A stretch of 57,029 nucleotides of DNA, counting the filler, from Sphacelaria rigidula (taxonomy: Eukaryota): the NCBI GenBank assembly GCA_964200075.2. It is 4 parts of 4 records of this genome, joined end to end, with 100 filler letters (N's around TTAATTAATTAA, not from the genome) between each part and the next. Parts side by side here need not be neighbours in the genome. Positions count along the whole stretch, not along the records: positions 1 to 14,187 come from CAXNAA020002404.1; 3 more parts are not named here. One strand, given 5' to 3'. Positions 1 through 49,055 of the stretch are shown in pieces (position 1 is the stretch's first letter; every line of letters starts with the position of its first letter). The translations under genes were made by a program, and so were the position numbers. The notes beneath the pieces were generated by a model, which saw nothing but the letters and a program-made list of their open reading frames with translations, searched no databases and had not been told where the DNA came from.

Positions 1-420
1 CAGGGTACTGCTTGCATCCGTCAGCATGACGGCTGCTGCCGTTGGCATCGGCGCCAGCGCTCGCGGCCACGGCAAGATTAATTTAGCAAGAAGAGAAGCT
101 GATGCATACTGTATACAGTAGTTCGTCTTCAGATTCCAAAACAAAAAAAAAGACTGCAGAACTGCCATGTTGTCTTCTGTTCTGTGTAGTACTTTGCACT
201 CCATACACCACTGCACAGTTATCTTGTTTTCAGTGTACTACCCTGTACTCCATATAATGGCGTCATGGTTCCAACAGTTCTTCGAAACTTTCTCCTTGTT
301 TTTTCAAAAGTTCTCCTCGTTTTTTTAAAAGTACTCCGAAAAAAACGAGAGTGTTTTCTGTACAGAAATCTGATGCCGAATCTGGAATAGCCTGAGACAA
401 CAACCAATTTGAAAATTGGA

Positions 421-793
421 ATTGGGGATGAGAAACCCGGGGAAGTAAAATCTTCGTATCCACACCAAATCTTCGAAATATGGTTCCATTTCTTCACTTA
501 CTGATAGCTTTTGACAACTACTAAACGCCATGCAAATTTGGATCTCGATGGCCGAAATGTTGGGGCCCTAGGTGAAATACCAATTTCGGAACCATTTTGG
601 CGTCTGTTCAGACACCCAGAATTCCCCAAAATTGTTTTTTCACCTAGGACACCAACATTTCGGTTATCGAGATCCAAATTTCTATGGTGTGTGGCAGTTG
701 TCAAAAGCTATCGGTAGATAAAGAAATGGAACCATATTTCGAAGATTTGGTGTGGATACGAATATTTTTTTCTCCGGGTTCCTCATCCCCAAT
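421..793. mobile_element. Fold-back (palindromic) MITE-like element with ~170-bp imperfect arms
   Basis: Left arm attggggatgagaaacccggg...ttcgtatccacaccaaatcttcgaaatatggttccatttctt is the reverse complement of right arm aagaaatggaaccatatttcgaagatttggtgtggatacgaa...ccgggttcctcatccccaat. The mirror ORFs 498..704(-) and 511..717(+) give near-identical peptides. Confidence 0.8.
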
Positions 794-3700
794 AAGAGAT
801 CCATCCCCAATTTGTAACATCCCGAGTTTACTCGGTCATTACTCATAATATTTCATATTTTCAAATCTTTCGTGTTCGCTGTGTCGTCCTCCCCGTCACG
901 GTGCTTCTTTTCGAAAGGGATGCGTAGTAAATGGTCAGACGACTAAGGCAAGCAACTAATGAGTACCCCGCCCCCCCCCATGAGCTGCGGCTGTGTAGAG
1001 TTCTAATGCACCACATACTCATGAAGTAGGCTTCCTGTGACCAGCATATTTTAAATGTCGGCGTAATTAGCAAGAGAAGGGCGCGATGCATCGTAGAATA
1101 TTCCATGATTTTGCAAATTGCGTGCATAGTTCATGGGGCACAGTGGGTCTCTGCACTACGGTACAGTGTATCTTGCACTGCTGCAGCACGAGTTTATCGT
1201 GCCCGCCACAGTCACAACCGAGGAGGCCCTCCCCGTCTGTTTACATGTGGCATTCACTGTACGGGGGAGGTCGTGCATTGGACTTCTGTCCTGTAGTGAC
1301 ACCAAAATGTTCTTCCGTTCAACGACACGAGAAGTAACGCGGAGCGAGCGGTAGGACCCCTCGCGTGTTGTGCGAATATCATACTTGCAACGGTTCAGTG
1401 TGCGAGAAACTGGACAAAACAGCGTATTTGAAATTTTACCTGGTGTACTAGTCATCTTCCTATACAGCAGGCGTGTGCACACATCAAAGGTACGCTGCAA
1501 TCAACCATGTACCGCCTTATGATCCATCCATACACCCTGGACATGAATGTACATAATTCGTGCTTCATTATTTTTCCATCCAACGACAATACAGGTGGTA
1601 TCGCACCAACAGCAAAAAAAAAAACTCCGCGGGGAACCAACACGTCCTTATGTTTTCCACGCAACCAGTCCAACACTACGCATATGAAAATACACCCTGA
1701 AACCAACAGGAATAGATGATCAAAGCTTTCAACATGAGCGCACATGCATGCCACATTTGTGCGACTCATTTATACGGCAACGGCGCATTTTTCTCATCCC
1801 CCTCGCCTTCAGCCGAGCACATCATTATTGACCCATGCCCTATAACCATTACATGCCTAAATCGTATTCCAACTTCCACGTCACCCACCACCTCTCCACC
1901 CTCGCAACAATGGCAAGCGGGACAGGCGAAGCGAACGATATGTACCCTTCGTGTACACAATACTGCGACTCTCTTCCCAAAGCATTTGATTCTTACTTCG
2001 CGCGGTCGGTGCCACAAGATTCACCCTCAACTCAGTGCAGCAAAGCCACGACCCAAGCAACAAAAACTGTCCCGGAACTGTTTCCTACTGGCCTCTTCCC
2101 CCGTCTCGTCACTCGGGAACCAGAGAGAGAATCGGAGATTTTCAACCACTTCTTGTACCATAGAATCTACGAATCTACGCTAACACACGGTGAAAAAAAC
2201 ACGGTCGGTTCCCTCTTCGAGCCAGCACGGCGTGCCTAGAACACATGTTTATCCTCTCTTGTCACAAACTTTCAAAGCAAACTATAACGCGAAGCAAACC
2301 CCCCCCCCCCCCCGGACACCAAACAATAAGGGGGTTCGCTCAACGACGCTTTCAAAACCCGCACACTTGAAACTTTCGGCATTTATTCCATTCCTCCTCT
2401 GCTCCTTTTTTGTGACTCACTGTGCAAATGAGTACACGCCACGTGAAACAAACTAGACAAGAACAGGAGGGGAACAAGAAGAAGGAATAAGACACAAGAA
2501 AAACACGCCAATCTTCTTCTCTCAACCGCCCAGATTCATAATAGCAAAAGCATCACCCCCCTCCCCCCTGCGCGCGCAACCATTTCACCCGTACTCTCCG
2601 ACCTCTACATTTTCAACCTTCGACCTTCCAAATTTTGGGACACCAGTAAGTCTTCTCCATCCGTTTGTATTCGCATGGAAACATGCCGACAAAACGACAA
2701 CAATTTCAAATCATTCCCAACACACCGCTCTCCGCTTTCAAACCAACAAAAGCATGAGATACTCCATCTCCACTTCCCTCATTTCTTCCACTTCCCCCCT
2801 CTCGATCAACGTGCCGAAAACAACCGTCAACGGGGTACTTCCTAGAAAGCACCCCCCCCCCCCGAAGGCATGGAACGCTACGAGGAAAATCGGCACAAAC
2901 CACAACCGTCCCCGCCAAAAGACATGCTTCCCCTTTTGCTGCCCTTTCGAACCATTCAATTTCCTTTTTTTGTGTGTGTGACCCCTGCATGTCTCTGTCC
3001 GCACGCTACGAAAAGAGCGAAGGGCGCCAGTGACAATTCAACGAAAATAACACGACCATCATCGACATATTTACAACAGTGAGACGCGAGGGTTACGATC
3101 CTCGCGGCAAGACGAGTTCAAACCACCAAGGGCCGGCCGAGAGGAGAGACAAACACAAAGTCACTGAAAGCCGAGGGGGCACAAGACCGCAAATCAAACA
3201 AAAAAAGGAGCCTCAGCAAGCATCACTGGCCATGACCCCCCTCCCCCGCTCCTCAACTCCCATTAACAAACACGACGACACCATTTTTCCAACACACACG
3301 GGACACAAGTAGGTGTTGTGTGAACGAGCTACAGTATATAGATGCAGTAGATGCAAACATCGCTCGTCGTACACCAATCACTCCGTAAACCCAAACGCAA
3401 CAGCACGTTTCCCGGAAAAACTCCGCCATAACCTACCGCACGGTTCATGTGCATTTTTTCTTCCTTCCTCCTCTTCTTGTCATTTTTCTGGACCTTTGTA
3501 AACGCAAAGCACAACCACAACAAACGGAGGGAAAGATACACTAGTATACTCGACCCATCTCGCCCCGAATGCACGGACACTTCCAATATCCTGCACCTAA
3601 GCTACTACACCTTGCCGTTTCTCCCTTCGACCACTCGGTCACCTTCCCTTTGTACATTTTGGCATCTTGTCCCACGCCGCCCCCCCCAGTTATTTTCTTT

Positions 3701-4351
3701 TCATCATAGAGAAAAAGAAAAAAAACGCCCCTTACACGCAGGTATTTCTCCTGCTCCCCTGTGTCATCGGTTGTCTCTTTCGACGAACTTTACTGTTGTG
3801 CAGTAACGCAGCCCCCGGCGGTCTTCATCTCATCCCTCCATCCCACCCAACGAAGTATGAGGCGTGCGGGACGCAACAACGTGCTTCGAATAATATATTT
3901 GAAAGCAGGTTTCGAGTGTGTCACGTACCGCGGACCGCACCACTCCCCCCCGCCCCTCGTCACACACACGATACCATCACCAACACACGCGCGAGGGACA
4001 ACAAGGCACACGACTCACCAAAACCGGCGGCCCATCACTCCTCCCCCCCCCTGCATCAAACAAGAACCTATTGACAGCAGGAACCTAATTAAAAAATCCA
4101 ATACGTACGTATAACAATCTCTCGGTATCCTTGCGCGTGTGCTACTGTATTTTTAGTTTGATTGATGAAGGGGCGCGGGGGGGGGGAGCCTTTCTCATTC
4201 CTCATGCCGCCAGCTGAGCTCCAATACAGCTGGTTCCAAGGGGCAGGTTCTTCGCTCGTTCTCATTTGTCGTTCCGGCTTAGTTCCTCCTCTCCGGTGGC
4301 TTTGCGTGTGCTACCGGTCGTACTCCATACTTTACATCCTGCATGACGTAT

Positions 4352-7300
4352 TTACATCTGGAATCCGCCGTCGATTCCGCCTTCGTCATTCTCCACGCTG
4401 TCTCGTGTGGGGAAGTCGTTCTCAGGAGCTGATGCCTCTAGAATGCGCCTGCAGTCGGGTGTTACATATCGGAGGAGAGTCAAATACTGGCGGATACTGA
4501 CTATACTGGGTAATCGGTCGCCTACTACTGGCGGATACTGGCGAAACTGGATAATTTAGCGCCGAGGTGATGAACTCTCATGTGTGATGACATCTCAACA
4601 TCACCATGAACGAGGGGAAGGTGCCACCTCGTATGTAACGCAGGAAATGTTGTGTTCGATTCCGAGTTTCAGTACGCATCGCACGTAGCACATTGTCACA
4701 CCTTCGACAACATACGGTCGATAGTTGCAATACGTGATTGTTGCCGTAGTGTCGCGACGCGGGTGTATCCTCCATCGTCGCCCTCCTTCTCCGGTAGACA
4801 AGAAACGTACTGCATAGAGTATCGTCATATTGCAACTATTGGCTTGAGGGAATATGTCGGCAGTCACACCACCTAGAGTAACACGCTCAATATTTCCCCT
4901 TCAAGAGTAATCGATTAATTCATCCAATAACCAATCACACTCACCTGCGGCGTTGCGTGACTACGCTTTCCTCCATCTTGTCGTGCAACCTCTCCTCCAG
5001 GAACTGTCTGTTGAGGGCGAGGTGGTCATCCTTGGTCATCATCATGGCCTGCGTGCGTATACCGTGTGAAAACAGGCGAAAGAGGAAAACCGCGATCACA
5101 AACAAAGATGCAAGGTCAACAGCAGCAAAGGAGATGAAGCCAGCCCAGGATGAGACATGGGATGCGTGGTCGTCTGACCTCGACAAACTCGTTCGAGATG
5201 AACCCCCTAGTTTCACCTACAGGTATACATCTAGGAGAGTAGGGTATAATTCACCACAAAACTTTGTTGTGACTCTCGGGGAAGTACGACAAACAAACAA
5301 AAAAGGAAAAAACATCCTGAACCTTGCCTAGAGCAACCGGTGAGGGTTGCTGAGGAATCAAACACACAAAGTGACGACGGTTGGGCACCATCACAGCAGC
5401 GACAGCCGTCGGAACAACTGTACTGCTGTTGCGGCCGCCGCAACCTACTCCTCATGTGCCCCTTGTTCTGTGGTGGCCAACGACGCCCGACATCTACACA
5501 TTCGTGAACCTGTCCACGGGGGATCTCTTCCACGGTGATTGACACGTGCTGCACGAAGAAACGCAGGGAATCGTTTCTACCGCGGGCACGGGGCCCCGAA
5601 CTGTAGGCGCACATATGGTCCCCACAAACACCCGAAATCTTTCACGTCGTTCCAATAAGCAAGGGTCAGACGATTTCATGATTCGTCTGGAAAATACTTG
5701 ATTTTGGTGTTACTGATTCGTACCGTATCAATCAATCCTTGAGCTTTGTTTTCGGCGTTGCAACCCAGGTACGCGCACCCCAGGCCCGTGGAATGGCGCA
5801 AAAACTGCGTCAAGTTTCTTCCTCATCAGCGGTCAGCTTTTTCCCTTCCCTATTTGGAGCACTCAGGTTTGAAAAATCGTGGATTTGGTGATTCGAACCG
5901 GCGATGATTGGTCCGAACCATGGATGAAAGCCAAGTGCACCGCTTGTCTTTACCCTCACCTCGGTCACTCGGCTGGCCTCGATGCTGCGGAAGCTCATGA
6001 TCTGGCTTCCGATACGTCCGGGGTCGATGACGCGGTTCTTCTGAGTTCGGGGGTCCTGGATGAGCAAGATGGGACCATCCAGGATGGCTTCCATAAGCTC
6101 ATTGCCCTGTTTTCGTTTTTATATTTTTGTCAAGCCATTTGTTCAGCTGTCTTCCGAGTCGTTGTTCTCGTGAGGCAATGAATGGAAAAACATACGGATT
6201 TGACTCGTTGTTGTCCGAATAGAGATTTAAAAAAAAAAGTCTCAATGCGTCGAGACTTGGCTGCGTCACATCACTTCGAGGAACAAACCGCAGGAAATCC
6301 TTTCGTCTCTCGTCTCCAAAAAAAGTCTTGAGAGGACAGGGCACCACAAGCACCCGGGTAACTTGGGCGAAAAAACGGCCAATATGTGTCAACCCATACG
6401 TTTAGTCAAGTGTTGGCATACCCGGGCACACCACGTCAACGAAGGAATGCTACACGAGGAAGAGACTGACCGATCCAACACCACTCACTCATCCGTAGCG
6501 ACACATACATTCCGTTACCAGACTGATACTACCGATAACACTGTATACTGTAGCTGAGAGGCACAAAAGGTACTTGACATATAGCCGACTAGGTGAAGCA
6601 AACACCCTCCTCAGAACGCCAACACACCATGATACGAATAATACGACGGCGAGACGTAACGTGAAAGTGATGATGAGATAGCCTCCTGCGTGCCCCCACC
6701 CCCCCCGCACGCCTGCCGTCGGACGCCGTAACCCCCCCCCGGTACACGAGAGGANNNNNNNNNNCCCCAGAACCCCAACACACCATGAAACAAATAATAC
6801 CACGGCGAGACGTAACGTGAAAGTGATGATGAGAAAGCCCCCTACCCCCCCCCCCCCCCTCGGAGAAGTGACTTGTTAGAGGACGTAAAATCCACGTGTA
6901 ACCAAAATGACAACAGCCGAGCATATTGAACAGTTGGGAACTCCTGCGTTGGGGGTCATTTTCGCCGATGTCACCAACACATACGGGGCGCTTCATGCAG
7001 TCTGTAGTCAGTAATCAGTAATCAGCGATCATGCGCTAAATGACCTGTCCTGTTCGACACTTTTGGGTTTGGTTCGAACATGTACTCATGATCACGCATG
7101 CCATAGTCGTAAGACCGTTGACCTCGCATCCCTACAAAGCCGGGACGGAGCACGAAGCGCCGTGGTGTGTTTGGCGAGTCGCATGAAGGGTGAGCTGCAT
7201 CCTGCCAAGATTCTTCGGCCCGTAGCCTACTGACTCATCTTGCATTGTGGATGACAGCCTTCAACGAGTTGCTTTATTCTCTGGTATCGCCACTCCCTCG

Positions 7301-10300
7301 GACAGGCACGGCTTATACACTGCCTCATGGGTGCCTCACCATTTGAATACTACGTGGTACGATCATCCTCATTGTGCGGAGTTGAGGTTCTCCCACGCCC
7401 CACAAGGTGATCTAGCTCGACCACCATTATGGTTACCGCAAAAAAAAAAAAACGCAAGTGCGCAAAAAACAGACGGTAACCTGATTGCCTAGCTACTGCA
7501 GTGAGTGGCGTGTTTCATGACGTCATCGCCTACAGACGCCACCCCATCGGGGGTCCGCCCCTACAAAGCCGGGGGGGGGAGGGGGGCTACCGCGGCATCA
7601 CTTTTGACGGCAGGTCGAAACACGCTTGAAAATGTTCGTTTGTTCGAACGCACCTTGAGATTGGGACCGTCTTCGAGGTCGTTCTTATGCATGAACCTCT
7701 CCACCCAGTTCAGCGTGTAACGGTCGCCGGATATCCTCAGCTCGGAGCAGTAGCTGCTGATGGCCGCCTTCGTGATCATATCCAGCAACAGCTTGTAGTT
7801 CTTGCCGCGGTAGGGCGAGCTCGTGTTGTTGAGTGGGTCTGCGTCGCACCCACACACGCACGCACGTGAACACAGCACGTCAAGTGGACGGAAATATGAC
7901 CATACAACCAGTGTTGGTGCTTCACTAGAAAATGACCATCGCGTCGAGGTCAGGGACTGTTGCAGGGCACGACACGGTGGCGGACACAACAACAGTCCTG
8001 AGCCGCGTTTGGGTTCCTATTTTTGGTGGGAGACCGCGCAGTCGGGGGTGATCGGGGTTGATTTCAAGACCGAAAACACAATCCCAGACTCGCAACAGCC
8101 CCCCAGGTCATAGTTTTCCCTTCCTTCTCTCCGTGTTGTGTAAATAGTGATTCTATCTACATTTTATTTCTCATCAAATTATTCATCGCACTTTGAACCC
8201 TTGCCCTTTCTTGGGGCAAGCCCGTGGTCTCGAGCGAGGAACCCATCTCCTCCCGGTATATCAAGTAAATAGATAGAAACGTCCTAGTAATGGTATCGAA
8301 CACCTTGAAACTGAAACCAATACAAACTCTTGATTTCAAATATCCAGAGTGGACTATATTCTCAAGAAAAGATTCACAATAATAAACTAAATGTTCACAT
8401 ACACAAATGTTCCTGAATTTCTCAACTGATGGTGAAAGTCCATCTACATGTATGAACAAAAAGCATCGCATTCGACTCTACCGACTCTTCGGCCTCTCTA
8501 CATGCTACGCCCGCCCGTCTCCAAGCGATTGGCTAGATGAGCAGCGCTTGCTGACGAGGCGTTTACTTCCCTCGAGGGAAAAAAAAGAGAGAGCAGGAAA
8601 TCCACTACTACTAGTTGACTTTGTCTCCCTCACCGTGATCGAAGACCATCCTCCTGTCGCGCTCGGCTGTTTCCTTGTCAAGACATATCGCGTCCTCACG
8701 ATGCCTCTCCAGCTCCGAGTTTTCAGCGGAAACGAGTTCTAGATCGCGGATCCACTCTTGGGAGATCTGCTCCCTGATCTGCTTATCCGGTACGTTTCGA
8801 TGGCCACAGGTGAACACATGGCAAGGAGCGGGTGAATAATCGCCGATTCGGACCATGAAGTCTTCGACCTCTCAACTTACCCCTGACTGATCGAAAAAGG
8901 AACAACAAATAGTTCACCGCAGATCATAACATTCTCTCGCGCAAGCTTTGCGCTATTCCACGTGCCTGAGGTGCAGCGCTAAAAACAAAGGAAGAGGGAT
9001 TTCTTCGGACGGTATAAATCAATCATCTACACTGAAATCAAGAACTTGGCAGATGAATCATGATGAAATTGTTCGAGTCGACTCTTGATGATATGCAGGG
9101 TATCATGACTACACTGCAACGATAGGTCATCGCTGGTCCACCATGCCCGGAAGTTAACTCCAAAGGCTCATGAGGCCACCGAATCGCATCGAGACTTGAT
9201 AAATTCTTGCCGTGATATAAAGACAGTTCTTTACCGGCGGCTAATTCCGCTGCCTTGGCTCATTTGTCGGCTTTGGCTTTGGCAATCTTGGCTGAGATTT
9301 CCGTGAGAGACAGTTCGATCACCACCTTTTTTCTGCCTAAGCTGCTTAGCAGTATGTCTAGCGGCTACCGAGAGGGGAAAGAGAGGGGGGGAGGAAGTGT
9401 CTTTGCCTCCAATGGTCGTATGACCATGGCATGCATCATCATGACTCCGCCCCCCCCTCCCCCCCCCCCTCTCCCCGTCTTCAAGGGCAAGCGTGGTCAA
9501 TGGTCGAACGACCAAGGCAAGCAATAAATGAGTACTCGCCCCTTCCCCCCCTGCCCCCCTCGGCGTTATTGTTCAGGATGAAGAGAGGACGGCCGCGTAA
9601 ACTATACCGTCAGGATTACCCTGTACTGGTTTCAGAGGTGAACGGCCAACAGCCAACTGCCCGTTTCGTAATTTGGATTTTTTTAAATATGTGAGCCGAC
9701 ATTTATGGTTTTGGCAAATTCGTTTCGTCACAGAATATATTTTGGACTGTGGCTCATTGTGTGCTGCAAGACAGCAGCAGCGCCACAAGAATGTTATCGG
9801 TAAAAACTGCACAGTAGTCACGCATGCACCCCGGAGCACCAGCTGCAACGCCGCAAGATATTATGCGCTATCGCTTTAAATCTCGCATCCGGTTACACAT
9901 ATCCAGTGACATGTTCACGTCAGCGCAGCACAGGAACCACAAGGGACCGCGTTAAAACGAACGCACCTGCATCAGTTTTTTGACAATGGTCTGCGGCTCG
10001 ATGAGCACCGTGTACTCCTTCGCCGCGCGGTTGGCTTGAAGAAAAGGATTGTTGCCCGACCTCCCGCGAGGCCGCTGAACCAGTCGCCGTACAAGGATCT
10101 CCTCCGGTTCTTGCCGCATGAGCCGACGCATGTGACTTATTTTTTGTCGTTTTCCATGATCGATGCAAAAACGGTGGAATGGTGGCACTTCAGAGAGACA
10201 TAGTGAGCTACGGGGCGGACAGCTGATGAAAAACAGACCGCGCGCTGGGGGGAGGGGAACGATATTTGCACGCGAGTACCGTAGCAGACTCTATCATCCG

Positions 10301-11823
10301 AGGTACGGTGTATCAACATCTGAGAATTCAGGCTTCTCGGATATGATACGACACGCACGAAATTTCCGTCATGCCAACAATTGAAATTTTCATTATTTAG
10401 GCACATCAGCCCGACCTCTCGGGCACGTGGTCACAGACGTCGGATGGTGCTTCCAACACCGACCCTGCAATTCCTCACGACGAATTGAGCTCTCATGAGT
10501 TCTTGTGACAATTGATTAGAAAAAAGGAAGGCCGACGTCAAACAAAAACTAAGGCAGTTGCCCTAAAGAGACGCAATTACTGATTCACGAGGAAAAACCA
10601 TCGTATCAGAAGGTGATGAACACGACGCTACAAGAGTGACAAGACACAATAAACTCGCAATAAATTCCATGTTGCATAAATGCTACTGCAACGCTGACAC
10701 ATGAGAGTCCGAAGGCACTCACTCTGCCCAACCGATTTCCTGCACTTCTCCGTTGGCTTTTGTGTGCGCCTTCAGCCACTGGGGTGTGAGATCGTCGCGA
10801 AACTCCAGCCAGTAGTATACTACACTCGCAATGGCCGCTTCTGAGAGCATATTCTTCACAGCCCTGTCACAACATGAATTAACATTCACCAGACCATACC
10901 AAACGCAGGGAGGGGAGGGGAGAGGGGAGAGGGGAGGGGGGGGGCGCACTCACTTATTGCTTGCCTTAGTCATTTGACCATTGACGACGCATCTCCTTCG
11001 AGACGGAGCACCATTCCTACTCCTGGTTGCGACACCTCCAACATTTGGGCGTTCATTACGTTTCTATTCAACACCACACAAAAACACAAAAACCTCCAGC
11101 ATATCTTACACCCTGTACCTTTCCTGATTCGCCGTCTGCGGCCACCATCCATCTCCTGGTGTAGCGATCGTTTTCTCACGAACGTCCCATTTATCAAACG
11201 ATTTCAGGCCACCTTCGTCTACTTCCCACGTTTCCCCCCACAACACATCCCGCTCCTCCATGCCCAGTCCACCTTTCGCCACTATATGAGTTATACTCTC
11301 AATCGCCGCGCCACAGGGGCAGATTTGCACATCTACTTCCTCCTCCACTCGACTACTGGTATACTTCTTTGTGCCAGGTCCAGGTCCCTCACCCGAGCGG
11401 AGGTGGGATGTACTCATGAGCGGAGGCGGGGGGGAGGGGGAGGGGGAGGGATTGAACATAGTGTCGTCTAAACAAATCTGGAAAGCGTATGCTGTCCGTC
11501 GTGCCGCGCATGTCGACAGCAAGATTTCGATAGTTCCGGGAATTACGCGCGTAGAGAATACAGTACCCGAGAATCGTGCTACCAAAAATAAAAAAGAGTG
11601 CACCAAGACAAATCGACAGCATCTGCCATACAAAAGGCGCTGCTTCACACCATCGCTTTCCGTCACCGCCGGCAAAGACGTATTGCTTAATTTTTTTTTT
11701 TCTTTCGTCCCCTCTTACCGTCGCTTCAGCTCTTCGGGCCCCCCGCTGTCATCACTGTTACCCCCACCCCTTGTTCGAGGAGGGTTCAAGGTCACCATCG
11801 ACAGCCCATGACCTCTACCCGAC
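4352..11823 (-). CDS. Multi-exon gene, 5' end unresolved; uncharacterised protein with two tandem RbcX-like helical repeats
   Basis: Exons on minus: 11823-11719, 10863-10723, 10135-9967, 8778-8634, 7838-7654, 6106-5960, 5048-4945, 4448-4352 (TAA). All introns are GT..AG and phase-compatible. Spliced peptide: SGRGHGLSMVTLNPP...RAVKNMLSEAAIASVVYYWLEFRDDLTPQWLKAH...GWADHMRRLMRQEPEE...RGRSGNNPFL...IEPQTIVKKLMQIREQISQEWIRDL...SSPYRGKNYKLLLDMITKAAISSYCSEL...NWVERFM...GNELMEAILDGP...IDPGRIGSQIMSFRSIEA...GGFQM*. The gene structure is seen directly; the product label is inference. Confidence 0.85.
6612..6842. repeat. Local direct duplication (~75-bp core) either side of a 10-N gap
   Basis: cagaac(g/c)ccaacacaccatga...acggcgagacgtaacgtgaaagtgatgatgaga occurs at ~6612 and ~6768. 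Confidence 0.7.
7081..7343 (+). repeat. Dispersed repeat R1 (intronic copy); reverse-orientation copies at ~12910-13048, ~13994-14086 and ~38097-38407
   Basis: Core gacctcgcatccct..aaagccgggacggagcacg is shared by all copies; gcatgaagggtgagctgcatcctg...gcctactga...gagttgctttattctctggtatc is shared with the 38.1-38.4 kb copy. Confidence 0.8.
10950..11412 (-). mobile_element. 5'-truncated non-LTR retrotransposon (LINE) 3' end, in an intron
   Basis: Minus-strand peptide ...KKYTSSRVEEEVDVQICPCGAAIESITHIV... resembles a LINE ORF2 C-terminal Cys/His knuckle. The 3' terminus aaggcaagcaa(t/c)... is shared with short copies at ~915-966 and ~9480-9536. Confidence 0.65.
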
Positions 11824-14187
11824 CTGGTGTGGAGGTAGATGAGAACGAGGACATGGGCAAGGAAGGGAAGATGGGGCGAGACGGGAATATTTATGATTCT
11901 CATGTTTTGAGTGAACGTACACGTGCCGAGGTGAACGATAAAAAAAAACTGAAATTGTGAACGTTGAGATCTTCGGAAAGTTCCTCGCATCATTGCGCTG
12001 TGCGCAGACGTGGAGCAGAGTCTTGAGATTCCTTTGGGCGCCTGCACCACTGCACGGCGATGCTGCTTGATATGATATGAAATCATCAACATCATTGCAA
12101 TGGAACATTCCAGAGGCGAGCTCGAGAGGAGACTCTTTCCCCCTCAGCGTTCTTGTCCAAATGGTGAACGATAAACGATTACTATCAAAACTCTTTGCGG
12201 GTTCCACACCAAGGTATAGGCGCATGTCCGCGTGATACTCGCCACTGATCCACTTGGTGTGACAAACGGCCGCCATTATTGTACTGCCTGCTGATCACAG
12301 CCGTCTTTTTTGTACGATGGATGTCCTCACCTACATTTGCACGTGTACGACCTGTACAGCTAAGCTGCGGCGAGCTCGGCAATGCGTTTTATATTTCAAA
12401 AATGGTTCCGACGAAGTTTGGTTCCTCCGAAAACAGTCCATGATCCTCGACGAAATTGGTGGGAAAAACACCCCGCCGTCACAGCGACATTTTTCCAGGC
12501 GTCGTGTCTCCGAATCCCTCACAAATGGAGGGAGGGCAGAGGGTGTGTGTGTGCGCGCGGTACGCATGCCGTTGTATCATTTGTTCATTTCTCGCACTTT
12601 AACCACCCCATTTCCTCAGGACGAGTCCGTGGCCTCAAGGGATCAACCCATCTCTGCCCGGTGCACGCCTTGCTTTTTGGTCTCGCGGATAGGATCAGCA
12701 CTCCCGCAACGCGTCAACTCATGTGCAACAAACTCAGTCGACTACATGCCAGCGTATTATTTTTAACTCCCATCACCGTTAGACCGACCTACGATCCACA
12801 AACGGTGAGAAAACGTGCCCGGGCGCTGCCGAAGCTCGAAGAAATCCACCTCGACTTTGAAGCAATTGTGAGGACTGCGTACTTTGCACCAGCGCACACC
12901 CTGGTCCCTCGCCGAACACATCACGGCGCAGGGTGCTTGGTTTTTGGTGGCGAGCCTGTTCCGGCAAAAACCAGGCGTGCTCCGTCCCGGCTATGAAGGG
13001 ATGCAAGGTCAATGGTCTCATGACTACGGCATGGAAGATCATGAGCACTCGGCCTCTCGTGACCATGTATGATGCCTGGGCGCTGCCTGGACCGAGAAAT
13101 CCATGTTTGGGTGGGAACAGCCATAAACATCCGTACTTGTCCCACAAAAACGGCGTGGGGCGAGGGGTCGTAATAACTGCAGGCCCTGACCTCCACCCCC
13201 CCATCTATTCTCGGTTCAACTTGTTGTGGGGGAGGTCTGAGGGGGGGAAGGGGGGGGCGAGGGGAACGGGTTCCATTTGATGCAGTGGATACTGGTGACA
13301 ACAGAAACGTCAATACAATTAGTCCCACTATAGTGCCGAGTCCCATAACAACAGTACCGTCACACGAGTTGGCAACCCACCGTGCGACAACCTCCTGCAC
13401 GTGTATTGTACTATACTAACTGTACTGAAAGTACAGTACAACACGGTAGGTAAGAAGAGTGTGCTGAGGGGTGCCTTTCGTACCTTCGGGCGATGACCTC
13501 TTTTTGATGTTACGGGGGTGTGCTCGTACTGCAGTTGACATGACAGACTTGCAGAATGCGGTTCGTTCCTTGATCCCCGCAACACTAGAAAGTCATAATC
13601 CGGCGATCAGAATACCTACGACCACCGGCCCCGGAGAGGACGGAGACACGAAACTCTTTGAGCTATTCGCGCACAGGCGATCCTTAATTGTTCAAGGGGT
13701 CGTTCAATCGGGTATACACGGTGGAAAGACAGGGAGGGAAGGGTATTCGTCATCCACTTTGAGGTTTCCTTCTTTCTCGAGAACTCCTGGCAGGGAAGGG
13801 GGAGAAGGGGGGAGCGGGAAAGGGCTGCTGCAGTTCGTTGGGGGGATTGCGTAGAGAGGGTGGGCGGGGCGTATGGCTTCTGCAAAAGGGGTTCAAGCTT
13901 TGTACTGCCAAATCTAGACTACTATTCCACCAGCAAACGGCTCATAAGAGGGACGGTTTCAGCAAAACAACGTGAACTTCCCCCCCCCGTAACAGCCTGG
14001 TCCGGCGAAAATTCCGCGTGCTCCGTCGCGGCTTTGTAGGGATGCGAGGTCAATGGTCTCATAACCATGACATGTATATCATGATTAACCCCCGCCCCCC
14101 CTTCCCCTCTCCCCAGAATTACCGGGAAACCTAACGGTACTGACGGCCCCCCGTCACCAGCGGGAGACGTCGTTAATGGCCTAAAGA

Positions 14188-14287
14188 NNNNNNNNNNNNN
14201 NNNNNNNNNNNNNNNNNNNNNNNNNNNNNNNTTAATTAATTAANNNNNNNNNNNNNNNNNNNNNNNNNNNNNNNNNNNNNNNNNNNN
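14188..14287. other. Artificial scaffold spacer (N-run with TTAATTAATTAA six-frame stop linker)
   Basis: 100-nt N..ttaattaattaa..N block, identical in design to those at 28470 and 42751. Confidence 0.95.
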
Positions 14288-28469: not shown

Positions 28470-28569
28470 NNNNNNNNNNNNNNNNNNNNNNNNNNNNNNN
28501 NNNNNNNNNNNNNTTAATTAATTAANNNNNNNNNNNNNNNNNNNNNNNNNNNNNNNNNNNNNNNNNNNN
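28470..28569. other. Artificial scaffold spacer
   Basis: N..ttaattaattaa..N, 100 nt. Confidence 0.95.
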
Positions 28570-42750: not shown

Positions 42751-42850
42751 NNNNNNNNNNNNNNNNNNNNNNNNNNNNNNNNNNNNNNNNNNNNTTAATT
42801 AATTAANNNNNNNNNNNNNNNNNNNNNNNNNNNNNNNNNNNNNNNNNNNN
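42751..42850. other. Artificial scaffold spacer
   Basis: N..ttaattaattaa..N, 100 nt. Confidence 0.95.
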
Positions 42851-45144: not shown

Positions 45145-48100
45145 CTACACCTCAGCCGAGGTCACCTTGACATGGCCATTGGTTGCAGCGCGATTGCTCT
45201 CTACATCGTCAACGAGTCCGGCCATAGTGACCTCCTGCGCCTCTGCCATACTCCTGGCGCGACAGCGATCCATCACACCATTCGTCATAACGCCCGTGGC
45301 GAGTTCGGGAGCAGGAACGGCCACACCGGCCATCGGCAAAACATCATTGGCTGTCGCCATGCTCTTGGAGCGATGGCGGCGGGTGTAGGGATCTCTCTGG
45401 AAAAAGTCGTACTTCAGCGCTTGCGGCACATTCGGCTTAGCGTTTGCGGGTATCGGATCCTCCTCCAGGATCACCTCGAGGTCGTCCGACATCAGAGCTT
45501 GCGCTTTCCTGTTGAAAGCATGAAGGGTTTGGAGTAAAGCGTCGGTGGTTGCACAATGAATCAGGGCATTATTGCAAGATAAGGTCGTGTCGACATCGAC
45601 CACAGCACTTCGCAGAAAGGTTTTTGTAAGCATCCTCTCCTTGTGGTCGGGTAGAGAGCTTTGGTATTTGCTCACATCATACTGCAATCCGACAGCAGTA
45701 GTGAAATCAACGCACAACAACTTGACACAGTATCGGAAATCGCTAGGATACGAGAGGCTGCGCACCGTCATTGCCTCGGGGTGTAACTGCAAATACTACG
45801 AACCAAGACTTACGTGATAATACGCGCTGACTCCGCCTTGATCCTACGCAAGCGCAGGTGCTTGCCAGCACCCTTGTACCGCTCCCCCAGGGTCTTGAGA
45901 GTTTCCATGGCACTGAAGTCGTCAATGTCGGCTGTGTGGAAGTGGACTTCAACCATGCCAGGATCATTACGGTGATCGAACAGAGCGAGAAATGATTCAC
46001 TAGAGGCGAAAAAAAGTGCGCCAACGATTTCGTACACCTGCCGCGCGACAACGCCGGAAGAGGCAAGCGCGGGCAAGTAGACGTGGGGATGGGATCATGA
46101 TACACAAGCAGGTCTCATCCAACAAGCAAGAGCATGCTCCATACGATCAGCAACATGACTCTTCCGTCACGACATGAACGCATGCTTCGGATGAACCTTT
46201 GAAGAATTGCGTAGGCAATAGAGAACCTTGACGCAAATGTGCACCCAGACTGCCAGTGCCCTCAAACAGAATTTCAGCCATTAGCGGCAGTAGATTACGG
46301 CGAGCTCTCGTGCAACGATACCGGCAGTCGGGTGAAGTGACCATGTTTTCACGTACCTTGACGATGGCTGGGTCCGTCACCTCCACGCCAGGGCGATAGT
46401 ACGAGCGAGCAGTGATAGCTTCTGAGCTCTTCCATACAAACGCAAGGCACGCGACGGCGATGCCAATTGCCACGGCGATAGCGAGGTTGGTGAACGGAGT
46501 GGCTACCGTTACCACAACTATGATCAGAGCGTCTGCGCGCGAGATTCTCTTCTCATTGACCGACTTGTGACCCCGGTACTTCTCTGGCAAGGCGGCAGCG
46601 AGCACCATCAACGTGCTTCCCCAATCGAACGTATTAAAAGCAATCACAAGCATCACGCCCACCAGGCCCGCCAGGGGGATAAGGTTGATCAACGGAGACG
46701 CACCCAGCACCACGACAAGCACTAGGATTCCGGACACGGTGGCAGCGATACGGGTACGCCCGCCTGACTTAATGTTCACCATGGTCAGACCGATCTCAGA
46801 GTTACCGCCCTGGCCCCCGAAGGCGCCTGCGACCAAGTTGCCGACTCCGCCCAGGATGGCCTCACGATGAATGTTCGAAGACGTCTGCGTTATCTCATTC
46901 ACAAGGCGCACCGTCATCAGCGACTCCACCAGCCCAACCGCCATCAGGCTGATTGCAGTGGGCAGAATGGTGGAGAATGTTTCACCGTTAAGCGGAGGCA
47001 TGTTCCACTGGTCGTCAGCCCACGCCGGAATCGGGGCCTCGCCCTTCACCTCGGCGATGTCTTCCAAAGTGTTCGTTCCTGAGAAACCAATCGCGAAGCG
47101 CACGATCACCCACTCCACCACGGTTGCGACAATGATGCCCGCCAGGATCGCGGGTATGAACTTCAGAAACGACATCCATTTGGGCAATTTCTTCGACTCC
47201 ACGAGTCTCGGGTACGTGACGATGACGACCATGGTGATAGCCATAACTAGCAGCGTATACCACAGTAGCTCGCCAGAAATCCATTCAGATCCATCTGTGA
47301 ACACCGAAAAGCTGTTGAGGCGGCGACCCGCGGTAGCACCGCCGAGCGTAAGACCTGTCTGGAAGTTCTTCATTTGGGCCAAAAACAGCACAATCGCAAG
47401 CCCGTTGACGAAACCGATGATCACGCTCACTGGCATGAGGCGGAGGAGTTTCGCCACCCCAAGAAAACCCAGTACGATCTGGATCACCCCCGCGAGCATG
47501 AAGGCATAGAACATGAGCTCCGTGCCCTCGTCAGCTACGAAACCTTCCAGAATCACGCCCATACTCCCTGAGTTACTGTAAACCATTCCCGTTCGCCCTG
47601 GGGTGAACAAAAAAAGCAGGATACAATACCATGACAAACCGTGCGTTGGGGGCGGGGAAACGTCATCAGCATGTGAATGTACGTGAACCTTGCTCCGTGG
47701 GCGATTCACATTCCCAAGGGGGGAAAGAGAGATTTACTTCTCGCCCACATCAACTTTGAATCGGTTCCGATCCTAGTTGGGCCGTCGAAAAACGCGCAAT
47801 GGCGCTTCCTGAGAGAAAGGGGGGGTGGAGGAGGGGGATTCCCGTTGGGCCGGATAACATTTCATGTTTCCTGGTCGGAGATTCGGACAGTCAAGCTGTC
47901 AGTTTGGATGCGTGGATAGGACCACAGACGTAGGCTTGACTCGCATCCCAGTCCTGCTATTCTCTGCTTGTCGCGCTTTCGGGTGTTGCCGAAACACCGG
48001 TCATCATCATCATCACTGGATATCGACGTTCCCTTCTCCTATCTTGGCAATCGTGAACACACATGGGGAAGGGCGGCAACGGGAAAAGTGCTGTTGAGTG

Positions 48101-49055
48101 GAGGAAATCGGCGCTGAGAGCCACAATATTCGCGTTGTCCGCACTTAACCCGCCGATGGCTACTCACTCAGCCAAAAGCATCCAAGTCCGTAGTATCCAC
48201 CAACTATATATCACAACACCTCGCTCAGTGAACGGAGTATAACGACTTCAGCGTTCGCACTTCGTGTCGGTAAACTAGGCTCACACATGTCGGCACCCTT
48301 ACCTCCAAAGAGGGCCATGACAAGCATGATTATCCACGTTCCGCGCAGGCCCACAGAGGGCTTCAAGCCTGCCAAAATGGCGAACGCTACTGCCGTGGGC
48401 ACGGCGGTAAGTCCAGTTGTGATACCGGCTAGCCACTCCACGCGATTGCTCGTAATCCAGAGCAATACATCTCGCCACTTGTGTGCACTGGAGTTGAACG
48501 AAGAAGGACACCCGCACGACCGCGCGCACGTGTAGGGCTCTTCCTCCTTGTACTGCGTCATGCAAAATACGAATGTGCAATTGCAGTGACAAGAACGGAT
48601 GTCAGTTTTCTGTGTATGAGGTCGCAACATGATGAAACAGCACGTGATGGGATTGACTGTCGCTCACCTCATCCTCGACGAATCGAGCCTAGTCCCGACA
48701 TGGAACTTGCTTGTACTGCTTGCTTGTACCAATTGAATCTGAAGTCTGTATCCATGTCAGAAGCAGACGCACAGTACCGCGTTGGGCATGTTTCCCCCCC
48801 TCAGCCCTCGCCGAAATACGGCAGCAATAGAACCCAAGACTTGATTTTTAATCGGATATCCACTTCGCTGTGTGGGGCGCCTGCACAGTCCTGTACACAC
48901 CACACTACATTAATAAACGTGTGGTGACCGACAGTAGCGACTACCAATGGCAGAGCATGCACGTGACTTTCAGGCTCGTCTTTCTGGAGTGTATTTGAAG
49001 CTAGATCTGACAGTTGATAACTGGTGGAGCGCGAGTGGTGGGGCATACGCGCCAT
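45145..49055 (-). CDS. SulP/SLC26-family anion transporter with C-terminal STAS domain
   Basis: Exons: putative first exon from ATG 49055 (donor uncertain), 48552-48303, 47597-46357, 46037-45814, 45508-45145 (TAG), with phase-consistent GT-AG junctions. Motifs: EWLAGITTGLTAVPTAVAFAILAGLKPSVGL, LFGGRTGM, GFVNGLAIV, GLVESLMT, NIKSGGRTR, NLAIAVAIG; STAS VYEIVGALFFAS...DFSAMETL..LGERY..AGK. Confidence 0.92.

Follow-up and report, generated by a model that had tools for sequence, protein, structure and literature searches.

RbcX is a small protein of about 110-155 residues, made of a single domain and working as a homodimer, whose hosts carry form IB Rubisco. To our knowledge the RbcX fold is known only from chaperones of the Rubisco large subunit (RbcL), and no other function has been attributed to it. 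Its groove carries tyrosines at positions 17 and 20, which reportedly hold the C-terminal peptide of RbcL; positions 29, 32 and 70 form a polar corner surface which reportedly contacts a neighbouring RbcL. The best CO2/O2 specificities known are those of red-type Rubiscos, from red algae and diatoms. Placing red-type Rubisco in crops has failed at the assembly step. Form ID Rubisco fails heterologous assembly according to the literature (PMC9833100, PMC12452902); homologues of RbcX and of other green-type factors are said, in a review, not to be found in organisms with red-type Rubisco (PMC9833100), and a paper of 2025 describes the assembly factors of rhodophyte Rubisco as still unidentified (PMC12452902). 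This work concerns a gene of the brown alga Sphacelaria rigidula (assembly GCA_964200075.2), found on the minus strand between positions 11823 and 4352 of a stretch of 57,029 nucleotides, hereafter called the window. The gene almost certainly encodes a real and expressed protein in which the RbcX fold occurs twice in tandem.

Organization and splicing of the gene

The window is made of four non-contiguous pieces of about 14.2 kb each, separated by identical spacers (N44-TTAATTAATTAA-N44) at 14188-14287, 28470-28569 and 42751-42850, which recur at a distance of about 14,281 bases. Different pieces need not adjoin in the genome, and genes may be cut at piece ends. The gene resides in the first piece (window positions 1-14187, from CAXNAA020002404.1), which ends at the artificial spacer at 14188-14287. 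The G+C content of the window is about 50%, and the flagged region is devoid of long open reading frames (ORFs).

The gene results from the joining of eight exons through seven GT-AG introns of 496-1547 bases, from 11823 down to 4352. Exon borders were placed at canonical splice sites, and peptide stretches were taken from the minus-strand frames. The spliced frame is open throughout, and its translation is 363 residues long and lacks the N-terminus. The first exon present (exon 0, 11719-11823) carries the end of a presequence followed by an acidic and Gly stretch (...SGRGHGLSMVTLNPPRTRGGGNSDDSGGPEELKR). Exon A (10723-10863) encodes helices 1 and 2 of the first RbcX-like domain (AVKNMLSEAAIASVVYYWLEFRDDLTPQWLKAH...GWA), exon B (9967-10135) helix 3, a beta-hairpin insertion whose loop is rich in Gly (RPRGRSGNNPFL) and the beginning of helix 4, exon C (8634-8778) the remainder of helix 4 (IREQISQEWIRDLELVSAEN...) and the initial part of the inter-domain linker. 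A conserved linker motif (DPLNNTSSPYRGKNY) is found in exon D (7654-7838) together with helices 1 and 2 of the second RbcX-like domain. Exon E (5960-6106) encodes helix 3, a short hairpin and the initial part of helix 4 of this domain (GNELMEAIL...IDPGRIGSQIMSFRSIEA), and exon F (4945-5048) the end of the same helix (DDHLALNRQFLEERL...). The coding part of exon G (4352-4448), all exons being on the minus strand, corresponds to an acidic C-terminal tail and is closed by a TAA stop codon at 4352-4354; the 3' untranslated region extends below 4352. The same exons were recovered by tblastn searches with three orthologues, and nothing else credible was found in the window. A preliminary description, made from the DNA sequence, had quoted peptide stretches from two homologous-looking halves and set the limits of the region at 4352 and 11823. 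All these stretches are present in the minus-strand frames and can be joined into one open frame, and the two limits turn out to coincide with the end of the stop codon (4352) and with the edge of exon 0 on its acceptor side (11823).

All the seven predicted junctions were found, exact, in spliced contigs of three sequencing runs of one study (X1, X2 and X3). In window coordinates the joints are 4447/8>4944/5, 5047/8>5959/60, 6105/6>7653/4, 7838>8634, 8778>9967, 10135>10723 and 10862/3>11718/9, the last one connecting exon A to exon 0, and joint ends read CT..AC on the plus strand, hence GT..AG on the minus strand. In each of the three runs a contig of 2.0-2.5 kb, at a depth of about 600-720, and a second contig together cover all the junctions, and one spliced contig per run spans exons G to A, thus crossing the boundary between the two domains. 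Contigs corresponding to introns were found in the same runs at a depth of 3-21, and because of this contrast with the spliced, high-depth contigs the three runs are taken as RNA; support to splicing comes therefore from three runs of a single study, the RNA nature of which is deduced from the contigs themselves. None of the seven joints was found in the DNA-like run X5. Transcripts are spliced as the preliminary description had proposed, and the brown-algal gene is nuclear and expressed.

The 5' border of exon 0 is an AG acceptor, and at least one additional exon must therefore exist upstream. As the window is made of four pieces joined by spacers, and the piece hosting the gene ends at 14187, the missing 5' exon or exons lie off the end of this piece. 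Searching the window by tblastn with the presequences of orthologues gave nothing credible. One contig has a loose end at 11825, beyond which about 255 additional letters are absent from the window; neither the first 30 of these letters nor their two 15-letter halves have matches in the window. Read by hand, the 30 letters add 11 upstream codons (QPATLQTRSSR), similar in character to the presequence of the Ectocarpus protein. At the other end of the gene, positions 4100-4447 occupy positions 1353-1700 of a contig (record 1) of run X1, which continues for about 1350 letters beyond 4100.

Homology, fold and distribution of the two-domain protein

Homology to RbcX is best seen at the level of the family. 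A single Ectocarpus sequence, compared by phmmer to the sequences in the PDB, gave two chance-level matches only (E 0.3 and 1.5), being too diverged, and a family profile was therefore needed. When the profile was compared to PDB sequences, RbcX chains were the only significant matches, at E values from 5.1e-7 to 5e-4, and the matched stretches fall in both halves. In half 2, profile positions 205-336 match residues 12-125 of RbcX in entry 2py8 (E 5.1e-7). In half 1, positions 134-176/190 match the helix-4 region in entries 2peo (E 2e-6) and 7xsd (E 3.3e-6), and positions 31-97, corresponding to helices 1-3, match RbcX residues 8-66 in entry 3q20 (E 2.7e-4). Entry 2pem was matched at E 5e-4, AtRbcX2 (4gr6) at E 0.065 only. 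Searches against Pfam point in the same direction, since RbcX (PF02341) is the sole recurrent family among 50 relatives: 26 of them match it at E <= 1, and 10 reach or exceed the gathering cut-off of 27 bits, with scores up to 57.0 bits. These matches fall in either half, sometimes in both, and 24 of the 50 relatives have no RbcX match. The RbcX assignment is moreover precomputed on 37 of 43 relatives of the red-algal type.

The two halves are related to each other as well. Compared as single sequences by BLASTP they yield two collinear matches at equivalent helices, neither of which is significant (E 0.099 and 0.24). Once the 122-sequence family alignment was cut at the linker, and the profiles of the two halves were compared by hhalign, homology emerged over 117 columns with a probability of 99.2% and an E value of 9.1e-20, at 15% identity. 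To judge from the profiles, the halves arose by a real, old duplication.

A model of the Undaria orthologue, the residue numbers of which are used hereafter, was obtained by AlphaFold2 from the family alignment. The model is compact, with a predicted local distance difference test score (pLDDT) of 90.6 and a predicted template modelling score (pTM) of 0.83. Domain 1 includes helices at 19-45, 50-62 and 70-79, a long beta-hairpin (83-90/110-117) and a helix 4 in two parts (119-141 and 144-160). A well predicted linker (161-186) follows, and the motif in this region is highly conserved (P185 in 108/122, R187 in 120/122, Y191 in 98/122 sequences). Domain 2 includes helices at 187-213, 216-230 and 239-247, a short hairpin and a helix 4, again in two parts (267-290 and 292-328), which precedes the acidic tail. 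According to the model, the protein is one chain in which two diverged RbcX-fold domains, each with a hairpin between helices 3 and 4, are connected by a linker of about 25 residues; the mature protein is about 350 residues long.

RbcX chains came first when the model was compared to the PDB by Foldseek, though the best E value (0.52) is by itself not significant. When the Foldseek list was analyzed by VIA-align, all ranks from 1 to 19 were RbcX entries (Z 11.2-7.5), and the following row had a Z of 5.8. Titles mentioning the RbcX mutants 'Y17A/Y20L' and 'Q29A' are found among the structural matches (mutant entries 2pej and 2pek). A scan of 48,161 representative chains, independent of Foldseek, retrieved five chains at Z >= 8, all RbcX, the following one being at 6.6, and both halves were matched. 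Residues 17-141 of the model superimpose on RbcX 4-86 at 1.6 Å over 80 residues, residues 186-289 on AtRbcX2 at 1.5 Å over 80 residues, and sequence identity in the structural alignments is 14-20%. Helical models may reach middling Z values by chance, as the tool warns. The structural match is nevertheless given weight because RbcX chains are its exclusive targets, a gap in Z separates them from all the others, root mean square deviations are low and sequence profiles agree. In the model, helices 1-3 and the initial part of the long helix 4 of the RbcX fold are found in both halves. The suggestion of a tandem RbcX-like protein, advanced in the preliminary description, is thus sustained on several fronts: the halves are homologous, both resemble RbcX in profile and in structure (ranks 1-19 in VIA-align, 5 of 5 chains at Z >= 8), and transcripts join them.

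The same description regarded the loop RGRSGNNPFL as an insertion, and so it appears in the model, where the Gly-rich loop encoded by exon B (Undaria 93-105, pLDDT about 75) is the tip of the half 1 hairpin, between helices 3 and 4. The loop has the consensus R-G-G-S-G-N-N-P-Y-L, and Asn and Pro are kept in 66 and 73, respectively, of the 80 sequences in which it is present. To judge from the alignment, the insertion is specific to some lineages and constrained in them; no counterpart of it is known in RbcX.

The family extends well beyond Sphacelaria. Exon D alone matches full-length proteins of Ectocarpus (414 aa), Pylaiella (421 aa), Scytosiphon and Undaria, with 79-85% identity over the exon. 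The identity of the spliced protein is 65-69% to the same four orthologues, 57% to the Discosporangium protein and 27% to a member of the red-algal type. Among 1.84 billion proteins, a profile of five brown-algal orthologues matched 452 representatives at E <= 1e-3, a number which falls to 227 at E <= 1e-10 and to 21 at E <= 1e-30. Among the 150 family representatives listed, most of those 280-480 aa long match across both halves; some database models are fragmentary (98-134 aa). Named members are found in brown algae, Phaeothamnion and red algae of the Gracilariales (Gracilariopsis, Agarophyton, Gracilaria), and one red-algal NCBI record has been automatically named 'Chaperonin-like RbcX'. 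A search with the 122-sequence alignment retrieved 15 proteins, the named ones being from brown algae or Phaeothamnion, and did not widen the taxonomic range. In a protein atlas, the Ectocarpus protein falls in a cluster of 90 members annotated as 'hypothetical protein', Bacillariophyta being its commonest known phylum and also the commonest of the two nearest clusters. Among clusters with a name, one of green-algal RbcX comes nearest (score 0.88), which by the rule of the tool is to be taken as a lead only. The range of the family rests on a few named rows and on the taxa of the atlas. All named member lineages (brown algae, Phaeothamnion, Gracilariales, Bacillariophyta) carry form ID Rubisco. 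The atlas includes in addition a cluster of 62 proteins with an RbcX domain, about 152 aa long (98% of them with PF02341), all the records of which are viral, Nucleocytoviricota being the commonest source; RbcX-like genes thus seem to exist in giant viruses.

The cellular location is suggested by the N-termini of orthologues. The Ectocarpus (...TGHA|FVAP) and Pylaiella (...TGHS|FVPS) proteins start with a hydrophobic, signal-like stretch, followed by a stretch rich in Ser, Thr and Arg. The junction between a small residue and Phe has been noticed by eye in at least 14 of the 116 Met-starting members listed, and in at least 12 relatives beyond the two just mentioned. In algae with complex red plastids, plastid proteins have a bipartite presequence, with a signal peptide ahead of a transit peptide starting with Phe. 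Red-algal members start with stretches rich in Ser, Thr and Pro, devoid of a hydrophobic signal. From these orthologues we infer that the protein would enter the plastid through a signal peptide and a transit peptide.

Possible clients of the protein

By homology with RbcX, the two domains would pack, inside the plastid, as the intramolecular counterpart of the RbcX homodimer, and the protein would bind large subunits of the red-type (form ID) Rubisco which have just folded. RbcL dimers or octamers would be held until the small subunit displaces the protein. Since the chain is asymmetric, its two halves could specialise, and it is plausible that the fusion of two protomers into one asymmetric chain could specialise one of the corners contacting RbcL. 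The Rubisco hypothesis is based on the known role of the RbcX fold, on the occurrence of the family in form ID hosts, on the assembly factors of form ID Rubisco still to be identified and on the plausibility of an asymmetric fusion. The protein is a credible candidate chaperone for red-type Rubisco, proposed here as a hypothesis and not as a result. That the Rubisco large subunit is the client is, in our judgement, an evenly balanced proposition, and the statement as a whole (an expressed tandem RbcX working in the plastid, as a pseudo-dimer, on RbcL) is likewise given an even chance.

The residues kept or lost relative to RbcX were mapped on sequence-based HMMER alignments to the family profile, and counted in the 122-member alignment. 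Trp-Leu...Phe of helix 2 are kept in both halves (in half 1, W in 99/119, L in 92/119 and F in 100/118 sequences), and the Arg of helix 4 is nearly invariant (111/122 in half 1, 115/119 in half 2). The equivalent of position 29 is mostly Tyr in half 1 (84/112), and Glu or Tyr in half 2 (E40/Y26 of 118). Position 32 corresponds to Glu in 79/115 sequences in half 1, and to Asp in 48/112 in half 2; position 70 to Arg or Lys in half 1 (R73/K14 of 122), to Gln or Arg in half 2 (Q44/R23 of 120). Going by the aligned residues, half 1 is the one which retains more of the polar RbcX surface, with its Glu at position 32 and Arg/Lys at position 70.

Several observations weigh against a tandem RbcX acting on Rubisco in the plastid. 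The groove tyrosines are kept in neither half. At the equivalent of position 17, residues are hydrophobic in character (half 1, F54/L28/M12/I5 of 107; half 2, L75/A14/M13/F9/Y4 of 121); at the equivalent of position 20, Gln, Arg or Glu prevail in half 1 (Q40/R36/E10 of 107), and Gln, Arg or His in half 2 (Q41/R14/H10 of 121). A peptide-binding cleft of the canonical type is therefore not assured, and the likeness to the RbcX motif cited in the preliminary description holds for the profile similarity of both halves, but not for the tyrosines at positions 17 and 20. Furthermore, the alignment used for residue counts is weighted towards some 35 red-algal sequences. The four closest brown-algal orthologues score 12.1-16 bits against PF02341 (E 0.015-0.24), below the cut-off, and translations of five single exons match no Pfam family at E <= 10. 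Judged by its own PF02341 score the protein falls outside the RbcX family, within which it is placed by the profile homology of both its halves; a Pfam comparison, which the preliminary description had indicated as a check, bears it out through the relatives which reach the cut-off. The Gly-rich loop is missing from 42 of the 122 aligned members, mainly of the red-algal type, and does not represent, therefore, a functional site common to the family. The N-terminus of the Sphacelaria gene lies outside the window, and targeting was read from orthologues only. Among the present results, only the homology of its fold connects the protein to Rubisco. Finally, red-type small subunits carry a hairpin which, in the review mentioned above, is reported to make RbcX dispensable (PMC9833100).

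Some of these points may be read in favour of a different scenario: although the RbcX fold occurs in it twice, the protein would now serve a different client or task in the plastid. It might take part in a different assembly pathway, work as a scaffold, or be associated with Rubisco otherwise than in L8 assembly, for instance in the pyrenoid. If so, homology to RbcX would be silent on the present partner. The replacement of the groove tyrosines in both halves, the built-in substitute for RbcX described for red-type Rubisco, the large divergence from RbcX seen in the structural alignments and the presence of conserved elements absent from RbcX, notably the linker motif around R187 and the beta-hairpins, all fit such a recruitment. 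Against it, no other function of the RbcX fold is known to us, every named member taxon has a form ID Rubisco, the chaperones of which are missing, and several features of RbcX have been kept, as the hydrophobicity at position 17, the Glu at position 32, the Arg/Lys at position 70 (87/122) and the Arg of helix 4 indicate. Recruitment to another client is thus a serious contender, the probability of which we set somewhat short of even.

It is very improbable, by comparison, that the likeness to RbcX is convergent, and that a generic helical bundle of an unrelated family was modelled. The non-significant Foldseek E value and the middling Z values which helical models may reach by chance could be invoked in its support; yet profiles reach RbcX independently of structure, down to E 5e-7 in the PDB and, for relatives, with Pfam scores as high as 57 bits, the two halves are matched at equivalent positions of the profile, and only RbcX chains rise above the Z gap, with a core superimposed at 1.5-1.6 Å over 80 residues. 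That the halves are two adjacent genes, or the artefact of a gene model, finds nothing in its favour beyond the truncated database models, and is ruled out, its probability being next to nil, by the spliced contigs crossing the domain boundary in the three RNA runs, by the open frame, by the full-length two-domain proteins found across the family and by the compactness of the model.

Returning to the tandem RbcX as a Rubisco chaperone, a bolder proposal is that the family may be the chaperone so far missing from the assembly of form ID Rubisco. It would be an RbcX pseudo-dimer, asymmetric and made of a single chain, required by red algae and their secondary-plastid descendants to build the L8S8 enzyme, and co-expressing it would supply part of what was lacking in the failed attempts to assemble red-algal or diatom Rubisco in E. 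coli and crop chloroplasts. Such a proposal we regard as rather unlikely. The family is a concrete candidate for the assembly of red-type Rubisco. It is conserved, expressed and probably targeted to plastids, it carries two RbcX folds, and its occurrence in just these lineages contradicts the notion that homologues are lacking there. No paper on a red-lineage RbcX homologue, or on a tandem RbcX, was found in the full-text literature searched, which for the most part did not include subscription journals, and neither RbcX nor chaperones are mentioned in the main text of a preprint on the diatom pyrenoid proteome (10.1101/2023.10.26.564148). Specialists may already know the family, since Pfam flags RbcX on red-algal members, and one NCBI record bears the name of RbcX.

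Surroundings of the gene and comparison with known systems

In the piece hosting the gene (1-14187) no other ORF of at least 110 aa is recognisable by Pfam. Segments at 6796-7469, 10840-11176 and 13873-14180, as well as at 5448-6121, 9492-9828 and 12525-13198, are found in and around introns, and their contig word depth exceeds that of the single-copy DNA beside them by a factor of 100 to more than 10,000, in RNA-like and DNA-like runs alike; they are high-copy repeats or transposable elements. The repeat at 5448-6121 must be intronic, because exon E is covered by one DNA contig at about 64x. A near-identical string of about 25 residues is found, between 6489 and 7014, in minus-strand frames on both sides of a gap of 10 Ns (6755-6764), and indicates a tandem duplication or repeat within intron 4, broken by the assembly gap. 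Additional features reside in other pieces, and need not be neighbours of the gene in the genome. Two minus-strand ORFs, at 46150-47733 and 48214-48663, match PF00916 (E 3.5e-34 and 1.7e-07, profile positions 77-355 and 6-50, respectively), and on the basis of these matches the region 46150-48663 is read as exons of one SulP-type sulfate permease gene. A minus-strand ORF at 37640-38023 matches, below threshold, the endonuclease/reverse-transcriptase family PF14529 (E 3.7e-05, 24 bits, the cut-off being 27.4), and is probably a fragment of a retroelement similar to long interspersed nuclear elements (LINE-like). The region from 37 to 41 kb has a strong negative skew of both GC and AT.

Among known systems, the Ulva RbcX-like protein UM003_0241 is described, in a preprint, as having a C-terminal Rubisco-binding motif, and as located in the matrix and at the periphery of the pyrenoid (bioRxiv 10.64898/2026.07.16.738900). 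As far as that description goes, this protein and the Sphacelaria one are both seaweed proteins in which extra parts have been added to RbcX domains. Ulva is however a green alga with a green-type Rubisco, and UM003_0241, compared here by its description only, has one RbcX domain and a motif in place of a tandem. The pyrenoid location of the Ulva protein shows that RbcX-fold proteins can gain additional, Rubisco-related roles.

RbcX-II proteins gave the best single matches in the fold scan. AtRbcX2 (4gr6_B) matches half 2 at Z 9.8 and 1.5 Å over 80 residues, and Chlamydomonas RbcX-IIa (5bs1, 5bs2), by its chain 5bs2_A, matches half 1 at Z 9.2 and 2.2 Å over 81 residues. RbcX-II are nuclear-encoded plastid proteins, as the algal tandem would be. 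In contrast to the latter, they are single-domain homodimers of the green lineage, and likeness in sequence is weaker, the family profile reaching 4gr6 at E 0.065 only.

Each half of the algal protein has the four-helix fold of cyanobacterial RbcX and plant RbcX-I (PF02341; 2peo, 2py8, 2pen, 3q20, 4gr2), including their long helix 4 (Z 8.9-11.2, 1.6 Å over 80 core residues). Trp-Leu...Phe in helix 2 and Arg in helix 4 are likewise shared, and homology is seen at the level of profiles. RbcX and RbcX-I reside in hosts of form IB Rubisco and have tyrosines at positions 17 and 20; the algal family resides in hosts of form ID Rubisco, and these tyrosines are not kept. RbcX is a homodimer of small single domains, a description under which the algal protein does not fall, because its two diverged copies of the domain belong to the same chain, about 350 residues long, and are accompanied by a linker and hairpins. 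The family represents a known fold in a new architecture, in lineages where RbcX was said to be missing, and would exemplify how gene duplication and fusion can turn a homodimeric chaperone into one asymmetric chain.

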